A DNA stretch of 30,126 nucleotides from Methanotrichaceae archaeon (lineage in GTDB: Archaea > Halobacteriota > Methanosarcinia > Methanotrichales > Methanotrichaceae), in contig CAVVKN010000014.1 of assembly GCA_963748825.1 (NCBI GenBank), positions 1-30,126 of the forward strand, in the 5' to 3' direction. Shown piece after piece: positions 26,268-30,126 of the stretch. How positions within the stretch are numbered: position 1 is the stretch's first letter; each line of letters begins with the position of its first letter. The position numbers were made by a program, and so were the translations under genes. A model generated the notes under the pieces. That model saw nothing but the letters and a program-made list of their open reading frames with translations. It had not been told where the DNA came from and made no database searches.

Positions 26268-27218
26268 TTAGTCTCCTCCCCGGTAGATCTTGTAGGCCTC
26301 ATCAACGCTGGCATTCTCCACGGTTATAGCGTAAATGGCATTGCAAAGGCGCACTGCCTCTGCCAGAGGCCTCTGGTGGATGTTTCGGCCTGTGGCATTT
26401 CCGGCCGCGCCGCTGATATGGATCTGGTCATGAAGCCTCTGCAAAAATTCTCGCGCATCGGTGCTTTCCCCACCGGCGCAGACAACCCTGGTGCGACCCG
26501 CTGCCGCCGCAACCTCCCGGAAGATCAAAGCCGAATCCTGGCCCACTTTCTGAGGATAGTTGACCTTGACAAAGTCAGAGCCAAGTGTTGCGGCCACGCC
26601 AGCAGCACCGGCGATGAGGTGAGGATCCTTCTCGTCCTTCACCGCTTTTCCGCGGGGGTAGATCCAGAGCACCGTCACCAGTCCCGCTTGATGGGCCTGG
26701 AAGACCAACTGTGCCGCCTCGCGAAGCATCGCTCCTTCGTGCTCGCTTCCCAGATAGATGGTATAGCCCACGCCCAAAATGTCCAGTCCACAGCTCTCCT
26801 TAAAATCAACAACCTGTCTTACATCGATCCACTGCGGACTGCAGGGATCTGCCTGGGCCGTCTTCACCAGATTGGTCTTGGAGTTCAGCTTCACCAAGTA
26901 AGGCACATTGGAATAGTCCATGCCGTAGCGAGCGATGAGGCCGAGCTGAGCGGCAAAGACGCCGATATTGCCTTCCGCAGCAATACGGAAAAGATGCTCG
27001 GGATCGTTATCTTGCGGGTCTATCCCCGGCCCAAAGAAATCGTCATTGAGATGCTCTGCTTTCTGATCTCCGGCAAAGAGCATCAACCGACCGCTGCCTT
27101 TGGTGATCTTTAGGTAGTTATCCTTGTATTTGGAGCGGCTCTCTTCCGGCACATCCAGAGGAACTATGATATTTTCTGCCATTTCACTCACCCCTTTTTC
27201 CGCCTTCTGCTCGCTCAT
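26268..27218 (-). CDS. Class I (DhnA-type) fructose-bisphosphate aldolase
   Basis: LFAGDQKAEH, GYTIYLGSE, LWIYPRG, DFVKVNYP (Schiff-base Lys) and GRNIHQ. Confidence 0.9.
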   Translation of the reverse strand: MSEQKAEKGVSEMAENIIVPLDVPEESRSKYKDNYLKITKGSGRLMLFAGDQKAEHLNDDFFGPGIDPQDNDPEHLFRIAAEGNIGVFAAQLGLIARYGMDYSNVPYLVKLNSKTNLVKTAQADPCSPQWIDVRQVVDFKESCGLDILGVGYTIYLGSEHEGAMLREAAQLVFQAHQAGLVTVLWIYPRGKAVKDEKDPHLIAGAAGVAATLGSDFVKVNYPQKVGQDSALIFREVAAAAGRTRVVCAGGESTDAREFLQRLHDQIHISGAAGNATGRNIHQRPLAEAVRLCNAIYAITVENASVDEAYKIYRGGD

Positions 27219-28153
27219 GCTCTCTCGGAAAGCACGGTCAGCTTCACCTGTGGCACCAACCGCTCGAAATCATCCTTCTGGGCCAGCGCCGTCCCCTGAT
27301 ACAAAGTGGTAGCCGTTCCGGCTGCTGCAGCATAGACCAGGCACTCTTTCAGGCTCTTGCCCTGCATCAGGCCGCTTATGAATCCTGCCACTGAGGAGTC
27401 TCCCGCTCCAATGGTACTCTGCACATCCACGTAGGGAGGTACGGCCAGATACTCATGGCCTTCCGAGACCAGCAGGATGCCTTTTCCCCCCATGGATACA
27501 AGAACGATCTTCACGCCCTGCCGGTTGATCTCTCTGGCGGCAGCGCAAATCTCATCCAGCCCCTTGAGCTCTCGGCCCACCAGCTCAGACAGCTCATGAA
27601 TATTGGGCTTGATGACATCTGGTCGGGCCAGAATTCCCGCGCGAAGGGCTTCGCCATCAACATCCAGCACCACAGTGGACTGGCATTTTTTTACTATTGT
27701 TATTATCTTTCTGTAAATCTCAGGAGTAACGCCCAGGGGAAGACTGCCTCCGATGGCCACCAGATCGCTGCAGGGCAGCCTCTCCAGCAGCTCCACGAAC
27801 TCCATAATCTCTGACGGCTTTATCTCCGGGCCGCGAGCATTGAAGGCTAGCTGCTTTGCCGTTTCCTTCTCATGGATGATAATGTTCGTGCGCGTCTCAC
27901 CCGAGACATGAACAAAATCCGTCTGAATGCCCTCGTTGAGCAATCTACCCTCCAGCTCCCGGCCAGCGAAGCCTCCCACGAATCCTAAAGCGATGTTGTC
28001 CACTCCCAGGTTCTTAAGCACTTTAGAGACATCAACGCTTTTGCCTCCTGCGAAGCTCTTCTCCTCCAAGATACGGTTGGACACATCGTCGCGTACCTTT
28101 TGAATCCAAAGGGTGCGGTCCAGTGCCGGATTGAGAGTAATCGTGTAGATCAT
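27215..28153 (-). CDS. pfkB: PfkB-family 1-phosphofructokinase-like hexose-phosphate kinase
   Basis: MIYTITLNPALD, GGKSVDVS, TRTN, IKPNIHEL and STIGAGDSSVAG. Start ATG 28153. Confidence 0.9.
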   Translation of the reverse strand: MIYTITLNPALDRTLWIQKVRDDVSNRILEEKSFAGGKSVDVSKVLKNLGVDNIALGFVGGFAGRELEGRLLNEGIQTDFVHVSGETRTNIIIHEKETAKQLAFNARGPEIKPSEIMEFVELLERLPCSDLVAIGGSLPLGVTPEIYRKIITIVKKCQSTVVLDVDGEALRAGILARPDVIKPNIHELSELVGRELKGLDEICAAAREINRQGVKIVLVSMGGKGILLVSEGHEYLAVPPYVDVQSTIGAGDSSVAGFISGLMQGKSLKECLVYAAAAGTATTLYQGTALAQKDDFERLVPQVKLTVLSERA

Positions 28154-28297
28154 GAGGGAGTACTTTCTGCGGCAAATGTATTGACTCTTTTGCCCGGGCC
28201 CGGCCGTGCAGCCGCAAGAAAAAGCCCGGCTTTGAATTCCTTCGGCAATTGCCATTAGTAGAAACTATTATATACGTTGATGACCGTATTGGATGTA

Positions 28298-28353
28298 GGC
28301 AAAGGTCAAGCCAGATCAAATCCCTCCTATTCATTGACTTTTGCTCCCCCTCC
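28298..28353 (+). ncRNA. Putative anti-Shine-Dalgarno hairpin sRNA, copy 1
   Basis: GGCAAAGGTCAA/TTGACTTTTGCT stem, loop containing AATCCCTCCT, C-rich tail. GAAA…TTATATA starts 30 nt upstream (28268). Confidence 0.65.
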
Positions 28354-28477
28354 TAATTATAACATAATTCGGCATGCCCTGCGGAAAACGGCTTTTGAGG
28401 ACTCTACCGTTTTGGATTCTAGAGCTTTTTGAAGGCCACCGAAAGGCTTATAACGTCATATGTCGGAGTCAGTTTAA

Positions 28478-28532
28478 GGCAAAAGTCGACGACCATCAAT
28501 CCCTCCTACAAGTGGACTTTTGCCCTCCCTCC
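28478..28532 (+). ncRNA. Putative anti-Shine-Dalgarno hairpin sRNA, copy 2
   Basis: GGCAAAAGTC/GACTTTTGCC stem, loop containing AATCCCTCCT, tail CTCCCTCC. CCGAAAGGC-TTATAA starts 30 nt upstream (28448). Confidence 0.65.
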
Positions 28533-28603
28533 TTCTCACAAGATGCAGGAAAGGCTCTTTCAGACCGATAATTTTATATCCGTTTAATGTCGTTAGATTT
28601 TTA

Positions 28604-28658
28604 AGCAAAGGTCGAAATATCACAATCCCTCCCAAGGAATCGACTTTTGCTCCCTCCC
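28604..28658 (+). ncRNA. Putative anti-Shine-Dalgarno hairpin sRNA, copy 3
   Basis: AGCAAAGGTCGA/TCGACTTTTGCT stem, loop containing AATCCCTCCC, tail CCCTCCC. CCGATAA-TTTTATAT lies 30 nt upstream (28574). Confidence 0.65.
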
Positions 28659-28724
28659 ATTATCAACCACGTCGATCGCCTAAGCCGAAAGGCTTATATT
28701 CGTCAAGCGTCGTAACCATGCATT

Positions 28725-28778
28725 GGCAAGAGTCAAGCATTTTAATCCCTCCTACACCACTGGCTTTTGCTATTCCTC
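28725..28778 (+). ncRNA. Putative anti-Shine-Dalgarno hairpin sRNA, copy 4
   Basis: GGCAAGAGTCA/TGGCTTTTGCT stem, loop containing AATCCCTCCT. CCGAAAGGC-TTATAT starts 31 nt upstream (28694). Confidence 0.6.
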
Positions 28779-28824
28779 GTTATTCGCTTGTTTTAGATAT
28801 CGCAGGCACTGTAGCCTCCTTTTT

Positions 28825-29068
28825 ATGCCAGATCCTGTGCATCACCGACACGCACATCCAGGAATGGGATGACATCAAAAAGGCCTTCGGAGAAGGGAAA
28901 GCCGTGCTCTTCTGCATCGACCTGGCCTACAAGGATAAGCATGTTGAAGAAGCGCTGGCGGGTTTAGGCATGGTGTACAACATCAACCGCCCGGAGGATC
29001 TTGTCTCTCTGGTGGTGGATGTCGCAGGGCGAGTCTATTGCGGGGAAAGTTTTATCTACTCGCAGTAG
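28825..29068 (+). CDS. Small hypothetical protein (probably about 80 aa, start apparently frameshifted)
   Basis: The GC-richer 3' part of ORF 28520..29068 (QILCITDTHIQEWDD…ESFIYSQ) looks coding. ATG at 28825 is one base out of frame. The 5' part of that ORF merely crosses the hairpin array. Confidence 0.4.
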
Positions 29069-29084
29069 ACTGCAATTCTGGCGT

Positions 29085-29156
29085 GCCGGGATAGGGTAGT
29101 GGTTATCCTGAGGGACTGTGGATCCCTCGAGCTGGGTTCGAATCCCGGTCCCGGCC
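29085..29156 (+). tRNA. tRNA-His (anticodon GTG)
   Basis: GCCGGGA/TCCCGGC acceptor, AGGGA-CTGTGGA-TCCCT anticodon arm, GGTTCGAATCC T-loop and C73 discriminator. GAAAG-TTTTAT promoter at about 29045-29055. Confidence 0.95.
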
Positions 29157-29489
29157 CCTAAATCGATTTTATGCAAATTATATATTAGAATTTCAATGAT
29201 AGGCTCGTTTTTTCTCACTTTGCATTATCTGCTAACCGCCTTCTCGAATGTCATGTTCTCCCCCGGCCCCCAGCGCATCTTGATGTCCTGCCATTTGGCC
29301 AAGTACAAAGCCAGTTCTCTCCAAAAAGCGCTCAGTCACTCCCGTCTCTGGCGATCGCTCCAGCCCTCCGCGGAGCCGTCCAGCTCGCGGGCTTCGCTGC
29401 CGGGCCACGGCCTCCTCACAGCCGCACGAACCCGCAGTCCACACGCGCGCGGGCGGGGCCGCATGGCTCCGGCATCGCTTGAATCAGGC

Positions 29490-29735
29490 TTATGCCTTTA
29501 GCGCCACTTCTCCCGCCGCTAGAGGCTTTGCCAAGAGCTTTCCCGCGAAAAATTCCTCCATAACCTCATCTATCTTCTCAGAGATTTCAGGAGTGATATA
29601 CGCTTCATCGCAGCAATCACACACCAGAGCAGGAACGTCCCTAATGACGATTACTTCATTCTTTACTTTAACAACAAATTCTTTTTTACCTTCGTGCAGC
29701 TTGCCCTTGCAGCAACCACAAGTATCTGGAATCAT
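29490..29735 (-). CDS. YgiT-type zinc-finger (MqsA-like) antitoxin
   Basis: CGCCKG…VIRDVPALVCDCCDEAY. Start ATG 29735 in an ATGA overlap with the upstream gene. Confidence 0.85.
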   Translation of the reverse strand: MIPDTCGCCKGKLHEGKKEFVVKVKNEVIVIRDVPALVCDCCDEAYITPEISEKIDEVMEEFFAGKLLAKPLAAGEVALKA

Positions 29736-30061
29736 TCGTTTTTCCTCAGGCAGTAATTTATCCATCTCTCTTCATCAGGCCAATATACTGTGATGATCCG
29801 CAAGTGGTCCTGGCAACAGGCCACAACTGCGTGACACGGACGGCCGGACACAAGCCCCATTATGAGAACTGCTGGACACGGCTCCTTGTCCGGATACTCC
29901 TCTATTATCTCTCCGTTGATTATTAAGTCTACCAGGTCCCTGTTGAAGATGCGCCTTTCAAACATCCTGGCGCGGGCGTGAAAAGTCAGCCGATAGTTGC
30001 GTTCGTAAACATTCTTTTTAATTTCATCGATGAGGCTAATTGGTTTCACCTCTTTGACCAT
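29732..30061 (-). CDS. DUF4258-domain putative toxin
   Basis: TFHARARMFER…GEIIEEYPD…LIMG…HAVV…IITVYWPD…W. Confidence 0.85.
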   Translation of the reverse strand: MVKEVKPISLIDEIKKNVYERNYRLTFHARARMFERRIFNRDLVDLIINGEIIEEYPDKEPCPAVLIMGLVSGRPCHAVVACCQDHLRIITVYWPDEERWINYCLRKNE

Positions 30062-30126
30062 TCAACGCCGATTGGTATCTCAGATTCAGGTCTTCCGCTG
30101 CATGGATCATAACCTTTTCGCATCTC

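Follow-up and report, generated by a model that had tools for sequence, protein, structure and literature searches.

A many-copy family of putative small-RNA genes with C-rich hairpin loops in Methanothrix and the Methanotrichaceae

Four hairpin units between a kinase gene and tRNA-His

The window—the whole stretch of 30,126 nucleotides analysed here—contains, between a PfkB-family kinase gene and the gene for tRNA-His, four similar plus-strand units designated w1 to w4 (Table 1). These are tandem duplicates sharing a common AUCA..AAUCCCUCC, and each of them is composed, from 5′ to 3′, of a BRE-like CGAAA element (with the variants GAAAC in w1 and CGATA in w3), a TATA element, a 12-nt quasi-palindrome, a variable spacer of about 10 nt, a stem, a loop and a tail. 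The stem consists of 12 bp (GGCAAAGGUCGA / UCGACUUUUGCC) and closes a loop of 24–27 nt with the motif CCCUCC(U/C); the single-stranded tail of w1–w3 carries a second C-rich, CUCCCUCCU-like motif, degenerate in w4. The minimum free energies (MFE) calculated for w1–w4 are −15.7, −21.8, −15.4 and −12.9 kcal/mol (z scores −2.25, −2.34, −2.98 and −0.69), and in all four predicted folds CCCUCC(U/C) is unpaired, lying in the loop of the MFE structure. The 3′ end of the 16S rRNA of this genome reads GGAUCACCUCCU.

It should be noted that four full-length 16S rRNA genes with equal scores are present on contigs C5, C7, C10 and C18 of this 25-contig assembly (G000). Just past tRNA-His there is a compact pair of genes, in which a DUF4258 gene (109 aa, E 2.8e-23) and the beginning of a 91-aa gene, itself without a family match, overlap.

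Table 1 Coordinates of the features. Positions refer to the window unless another sequence is named; R1, covariance model built from eight copies; identity, among relatives
Feature	Position	Strand	Parts	Score or identity
PfkB-family kinase gene	27215–28255	minus		Pfam match
w1 promoter	28268–28286	plus	TATA TTATATA 28268–28274; quasi-palindrome CGTTGATGACCG 28275–28286	0.97 across 3 relatives
w1 unit	28297–28358	plus	arms 28298–28309 / 28334–28345; loop 28310–28333; loop core CCCUCCU 28322–28328; tail CCCCCUCCUAAUU 28346–28358	R1 63.4 bits, E 5.8e-12
w2 promoter	28440–28465	plus	BRE-like CGAAAGG; TATA CTTATAA; quasi-palindrome CGTCATATGTCG 28454–28465	0.94 (5 sequences) vs 0.49 for the next 12 nt
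w2 unit	28477–28537	plus	arms 28478–28487 / 28515–28524; loop 28488–28514; loop core 28501–28507; tail CUCCCUCCUUCUC 28525–28537	R1 67.2 bits
w3 promoter	28566–28592	plus	CGATAA; TATA TTTTATAT; quasi-palindrome CGTTTAATGTCG 28581–28592	0.96
w3 unit	28603–28664	plus	arms 28604–28615 / 28640–28651; loop 28616–28639; loop core CCCUCCC 28627–28633; tail CCCUCCCAUUAUC 28652–28664	R1 67.8 bits
w4 promoter	28687–28712	plus	CGAAAGG; TATA CTTATATT; quasi-palindrome CGTCAAGCGTCG 28701–28712	0.92
w4 unit	28724–28784	plus	arms 28724–28735 / 28761–28771; loop 28736–28760; loop core 28747–28753; degenerate tail AUUCCUCGUUAUU 28772–28784	R1 64.0 bits
tRNA-His	29085–29158			only genuine cmscan match in 27500–30126
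DUF4258 and 91-aa gene pair	29490–30061	minus		
C4a, paralogue outside the window	G000:C4:78193–78258	minus		
C4c, divergent member	G000:C4:38936–39006			
Three tandem 242-aa genes	G000:C9:268209–271250 (L096 1711–4758)			
fpoH/nuoH-like gene	G000:C6:126122 (L149 323–1375)			
Single-copy relative in another family	L047 1501–1584			

Promoters, a shared putative operator and transcription

Concerning the promoters, TATA is positioned about 25–27 nt upstream of the first stem base in w1–w4, and the BRE/TATA segments are conserved at 0.92–0.97 identity; the w1 promoter also aligns with seven other promoters of the family. With the TATA spacing customary in Archaea, transcription of the four units would start at the hairpin base. 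On the 3′ side, T-runs follow the units only at variable distance. A T-rich hairpin region that follows w3 in the loci L063, L067 and L062 is deleted in the sequence studied here and in L064.

The same promoter and hairpin anatomy is common to the eight aligned copies and to 14 copies displayed with their flanks. In all 14 the quasi-palindrome, with the consensus CGNCAATTGNCG, directly follows TATA; it is the perfect palindrome CGGCAATTGCCG at the dispersed copy C17 and occurs also in the C2, C3 and C23 copies of this genome. The element is better conserved than the spacer on its 3′ side and is probably the binding site of one common regulator; given that the units share it, in a position between TATA and the start, their co-regulation is probable.

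In four metatranscriptome runs, assembled contigs were found over parts of the w1–w4 cluster; these carry no information on strand or ends, their origin from RNA is itself not provable, and stretches that they leave uncovered have no meaning. The contigs are compatible with transcription of w1–w4 and lend it slight support. Neighbouring units are bridged by contigs at 28492–28716 (w2–w3), 28611–28769 (w3–w4) and 28618–28752, the last having adapters at both ends, which, if derived from RNA, suggests read-through from one unit into another.

Size, distribution and stem of the family

In this genome the covariance model R1 yielded 13 matches with E < 1e-6 and, when E was allowed to reach 1, 18; its E values go down to 2.4e-15, so that the repeats together with their anti-Shine–Dalgarno (anti-SD) core are far beyond chance. 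Matches are present in all 24 genomes of the genus, 4–12 in each, and in all 74 sampled genomes of the Methanotrichaceae, covering 15 genera. In the rest of the class there are single weak matches, the counts for the families f2, f3, f4 and f5 being 0 of 3, 7 of 67, 2 of 4 and 2 of 2. No Rfam 15 family was matched by the hairpins (cmscan of 27500–30126, E up to 10), the same scan returning, besides tRNA-His, three chance-level matches outside the hairpins, and in the literature searched no paper on small RNAs of the genus Methanothrix was found. The units w1–w4 are members of an undescribed many-copy small-RNA gene family of Methanothrix and the Methanotrichaceae, with paralogues in one genome that have scaffold and promoter elements in common.

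Among 71 distinct sequences the stem is paired to 93.7%; compensatory changes affect five of its pairs, and none of 500 shuffles reaches its score. Its central 8 bp are invariant in these 71 sequences, which points to a sequence-specific constraint beyond pairing. Of 41 related loci, 33 have the cluster next to the PfkB kinase gene; there 74 plus-sense matches make up clusters of one to five units, and the order w1-w2-w3-w4 is kept among the related PfkB loci.

Start codons in the loop complements

The initial annotation had read the variable loop segments as programmable guides, the reverse complement of each being an SD followed by a start codon and by a different downstream sequence. The four strings quoted there are exact and occur once each as reverse complements, at 28310–28328, 28488–28507, 28615–28633 and 28737–28753, within the unpaired loops of predicted 12-bp hairpins in all four copies; the start coordinate given, 28308, lies 2 nt too early. 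The presence of a start codon behind the SD in every loop complement is, in contrast, compatible with chance. When the 5′ loop segments were permuted and ATG, GTG or TTG at 3–10 nt behind GGAGG was counted, a single copy had such a codon in 27–66% of the shuffles, and all four had one in 6.7% of 20,000. The spacing from GGAGG to the start is 3 nt in w1 (TTG), 5 in w2, 4 in w3 and 7 in w4; among 320 GGAGG-bearing starts of this genome the mode is 7 nt, a spacing of 3 being found in six and of 4 in 12. The four “start codons” are, moreover, not independent, since the units are tandem duplicates and the codons overlap a common UUGAU-like string.

Over the whole family, ATG is present in 22 of 62 distinct 5′ segments, compared with 9.5 ± 2.8 after shuffling; the segments, drawn from 88 members, are related by descent, and the enrichment was discounted, TGA (31) and GAT (29) being commoner still. 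A functional role of the start codons read in the four complements is not established, and that reading should not be used as evidence for distinct targets.

Search for targets of w1–w4

The loops were scored against the start regions of this genome, the null being the same loops with only the 5′ segment shuffled. Since the gene set was made with our own script (2617 genes, 79% coverage) and the assembly is 94.9% complete, some targets may have been missed. The initial annotation expected each loop to be complementary to the initiation region of a different mRNA; apart from a weak match of w1, no excess of start-region complementarity beyond the common SD was seen for w1–w4 over the shuffles. 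For ungapped pairing with 2615 start regions (350 shuffles), the best-match p values of w1–w4 are 0.43, 0.26, 0.30 and 1.0, and with 21,729 candidate starts (60 shuffles) they are 0.74, 0.53, 0.38 and 0.36. By duplex energy on the 2615 start regions, w1 reaches −29.9 kcal/mol against −25.6 ± 1.8, none of 28 shuffles being as good, w2 is worse than all 28 of its shuffles (p 1.0), and w3 and w4 have p 0.8 and 0.16; the energy tests are based on few shuffles (18–28). An annotation-free scan of both strands gave no SD-plus-start site for w1–w4, and GGAGGGATT, the complement of the shared AAUCCCUCC, is found in none of the 2617 start windows.

The best match of w1, with the energy given above, is the start of an fpoH-like gene, a TTG internal to an operon. 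This TTG, the apparent start, is conserved and lies 12 nt after the stop codon of the upstream gene; its SD region, UAGGAGGGAG, hardly varies among 10 relatives, in which the w1 5′ segment changes. The pairing shows no co-variation, the means for cognate and non-cognate pairs being −25.9 and −25.8 kcal/mol, and together with a p of about 0.03 in only one of four tests this makes the candidate unconvincing.

Several other candidates were rejected. The match of w2 to a gene for an AcnX swivel domain (15 of 16 nt, with ATG aligned) involves a spacer that is not conserved in five relatives keeping the w2 loop, and no more than 3 of 59 genomes of the genus contain its motif at ≤1 mismatch. Other matches to the w2 pattern recur in further genomes, but their equivalents here are out of frame with the start and probably represent conserved coding sequence. 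The w2/w3 matches at C2:20856 and C10:80398 are internal codons of longer genes, the upstream sequence being coding-like; a w2 site on contig C1 occurs in 4 of 59 genomes, and its complementary part differs; a site of 22/25 nt for w1 on C22 falls at about codons 7–15 of a gene; and a match of the paralogue C23 on C25 belongs to an open frame of only 14 codons.

As for targets nearer by or outside the chromosome, the initial annotation saw no convincing one within the window, and this holds, the top genome-wide matches located there being only the antisense of the RNA genes themselves. The viral or toxin mRNAs that it had also considered were not found as targets of w1–w4: exact 18-mers gave 0, 1, 0 and 6 matches to viral contigs, and all seven were rejected as gene starts of the generic SD-plus-ATG type that nothing connects with Methanothrix.

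Conservation of the loops among orthologues

Mean pairwise identities were calculated from close relatives, five in number except for w1 (three), and the 5′ loop segment was compared with the spacer that precedes the hairpin. The values for the 5′ loop, the upstream spacer and the 3′ loop are 0.72, 0.73 and 0.89 in w1; 0.95, 0.49 and 0.72 in w2; 0.75, 0.67 and 0.95 in w3; and 0.86, 0.64 and 0.90 in w4. Loops that vary at random among orthologues would speak against guides, and in this respect the units differ: the 5′ segments of w1 and w3 drift in a roughly neutral way, with substitutions and indels at greater distance, that of w2 is clearly constrained, and w4 is intermediate. The w2 5′ loop, CCATCAAT / CCAUCAAU, is kept in 10 of 11 orthologues, and to judge from this alignment the flank is under purifying selection. 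In w1, w3 and w4 the better-conserved paralogue-specific bases are situated 3′ of the anti-SD, which would mean pairing upstream of the SD rather than over the start codon.

The paralogue C4a and its predicted target

Complementarity to a specific start region beyond the SD is found for C4a, a paralogue outside the window, and not for w1–w4. The loop of C4a contains a perfect 18-nt complement of the SD, the spacer, the AUG and two further bases of a gene for a 242-aa protein. This gene is one of three that are arranged in tandem and nearly identical; the loop is exactly complementary to AGGAGGGAAAGAAAUGAG at its start, and the remaining two genes read GGUGGGAAAGAAAUGAG at this place. The best ungapped score is 44 against 32.8 ± 2.9 for shuffled loops on 2615 start regions (p 0.009; top-5 p 0.003), z is 3.5 on the 21,729 candidate starts, and the duplex energy of −34.8 kcal/mol, against −30.0 ± 1.5, was reached by none of 18 shuffles.

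The 17-nt target motif (≤2 mismatches) is present in 57 of 59 genomes of the genus, from which a reversed control is nearly absent. In 30 loci fetched by this motif, 14 matches are small-RNA genes and 19 are starts of the 242-aa gene family. As this set was selected by the motif itself, the orthologues were redefined by synteny with a neighbouring 413-aa gene, which gave 17 small RNAs from 32 loci of the Methanotrichaceae; CATTTCTTTCCCTC is retained by every one of the 17, while their 3′ loops differ in sequence and are missing for the most part in eight. The invariant 5′ segment next to a drifting 3′ loop is the signature that would be expected of a selected anti-spacer/anti-AUG guide.

The proteins of the 242-aa trio have a hydrophobic N-terminus and a Cys-rich C-terminus; no Pfam family was found at the gathering score, nor any usable Atlas match. 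A second recurrent site for C4a, with one mismatch, lies at an ABC-ATPase gene.

Interpretation and alternatives

Based on the above results, it appears on balance probable that w1–w4 are tandem sibling small-RNA genes, the loops of which pair with the SD regions of mRNAs, with flanks that bias the choice of target. A separate BRE/TATA promoter would drive each unit, with the transcript beginning at the hairpin base, and the RNA would present one CCCUCC(U/C) in a loop of about 25 nt and, in w1–w3, a second one in the single-stranded tail. These C-rich motifs may pair with SD regions and so block initiation, and the bases flanking the loop motif may lengthen the duplex and bias each paralogue to particular mRNAs. 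Of the guide model proposed in the initial annotation, the architecture of the family—a constant scaffold, an anti-SD seed and a variable flank—is borne out, as is the fit to a target in the case of C4a; for the copies of the window the model is unproven in w2 and w4 and unsupported in w1 and w3.

It is possible, but less probable, that the RNAs are redundant or additive general maskers of SD sequences, or “sponges”, in which only the two C-rich motifs would matter, the 5′ segments would be drifting spacers and copy number would set the dose. Agreement with this comes from w1 and w3, whose 5′ segments carry indels and vary roughly as much as neutral spacer, as well as from the lack of target enrichment for w1–w4, from the copy number of the cluster, ranging from one to five among relatives, and from the complement of w4, which is a generic strong start region with its 18-mer at six unrelated viral gene starts. 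Mere spacers would, however, not be expected to show the strong conservation of the w2 5′ segment (0.95 vs 0.49) or the invariance of that of C4a, which matches a specific conserved start region; every paralogue type, moreover, keeps its own 3′ loop bases across species.

The invariance of the central stem pairs in 71 sequences, and the retention of the stem in a distant relative that is single-copy and has another loop, would also fit RNAs acting as protein decoys, the stem and the 16S-like loop (AUCA..CCCUCCU, compared with GAUCACCUCCU in 16S rRNA) binding a factor that recognises the anti-SD tail or the stem. Archaeal proteins that bind the 16S anti-SD tail do exist. This explanation is nevertheless quite improbable: the complementarity of C4a reaches well past any 16S-like motif and tracks an mRNA, and dispersed copies carry U-rich segments unlike 16S.

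That the units are non-functional repeats or elements acting at the DNA level, with a coincidental likeness to ribosome-binding sites, agrees with expression not having been seen directly; it is highly improbable in view of the conservation family-wide and in synteny, the compensatory changes in the stem, and promoters conserved far better than the adjoining spacer. Scarcely credible is a functional minus strand, on which the loop complement would be the real ribosome-binding site and start codon of a small-protein gene: in w2 and w4 that strand does offer a strong SD with an ATG and, behind it, open frames of about 25–30 codons, but no conserved promoter is found on the minus side, BRE/TATA being on the plus side of every unit, 1-nt indels fall within the frame between close relatives (alignment columns ~231–242), the peptides predicted for the C4a orthologues change frame and length, 4 of 10 copies outside the window (C17, C2a, C13 and C3) lack ATG, GTG and TTG alike in the complement of the 5′ loop, and 27 of 62 distinct segments are without a start codon 3–10 nt behind GGAGG.

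The Methanotrichaceae may even carry a natural modular platform for silencing translation, in which an anti-SD seed and a guide flank that can be exchanged are joined to a stem that is invariant and probably bound by protein. Tandem duplication would create new specificities, one repressor site would govern all units, and each of w1–w4 would have its own target; in this full form the idea is speculative and rather unlikely. If true, the effect of the platform would be to tune proteins of the envelope (the trio of 242-aa genes) as well as energy metabolism (the fpoH-like gene). Methanothrix ranks among the main methane producers that use acetate, and the mechanism is known for very few small RNAs of Archaea. 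A family of at least 13 copies, present in every sampled Methanotrichaceae genome, offers a system for studying archaeal post-transcriptional control, together with a common promoter operator and one clean predicted pair of small RNA and target, C4a and the 242-aa gene.

Comparison with known systems

By design the family resembles LhrC, the csRNAs and the pair sRNA41/sRNA154, this pair being compared by mechanism only; by sequence it belongs neither to LhrC nor to the csRNAs. LhrC1–5 of Listeria monocytogenes are encoded by multicopy, partly tandem genes under a single regulator for all copies; their CU-rich (UCCC) motifs, which are redundant and located both in the loop of a hairpin and in single-stranded sequence, block translation by pairing with the G-rich SD, and the copy number of the siblings was proposed to set the dose (PMC4132741). 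The multicopy, partly tandem arrangement and the C-rich motifs in a loop and a single-stranded stretch are thus features in common (PMC4132741). LhrC is, however, bacterial and non-homologous, with three motifs and an intrinsic terminator hairpin (PMC4132741), whereas the present family belongs to Archaea and has BRE/TATA promoters and two motifs, its stem does not vary, its copies number at least 13 and the loop flank is specific to each copy.

The five highly similar, CiaR-dependent csRNA1–5 of Streptococcus have an unpaired region complementary to SD and AUG (PMC4387999), which is the anti-SD plus anti-start design that the initial annotation proposed here. In these bacterial RNAs the anti-SD/anti-AUG region is described as lying between two stem-loops (PMC4387999), unlike the family studied here, in which the motif is within the hairpin loop, and a constrained anti-start segment is seen here only in some paralogues (C4a, perhaps w2).

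Closer in taxonomy, sRNA41 and sRNA154 of Methanosarcina mazei are intergenic small RNAs proposed to mask ribosome-binding sites, including those within polycistronic mRNAs (PMC5867862); the best match of w1 is likewise an internal operon start, that of the fpoH-like gene. The two M. mazei RNAs differ from the present family in being single-copy and nitrogen-regulated (PMC5867862). RsaE and other C-rich (UCCC) small RNAs of Firmicutes also target the SD with an unpaired motif, but these are single genes, unrelated in sequence, as against a large paralogous set (PMC4132741).

Divergent members of the family

The divergent member C4c has a longer loop with the complement AGGAGGAAACAAUGGUC, and its start-region matches exceed those of shuffled loops (top-5 p 0.049, top-20 p 0.016), with a signal, weaker than that of C4a, also on the 21,729 candidate starts; the top matches include a duplicated gene start, GGAGGAGGAAGCAAUGG, on contigs C6 and C23. 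The single-copy relative from another family of the same class (L047) has an identical stem, GGCAAAAGUCGA/UAGACUUUUGCC, closing a 48-nt, different C-rich loop, AUCCAUCCCCUCU, and lacks the C-rich tail; with the same stem around another loop, the stem appears to be older than the anti-SD design.
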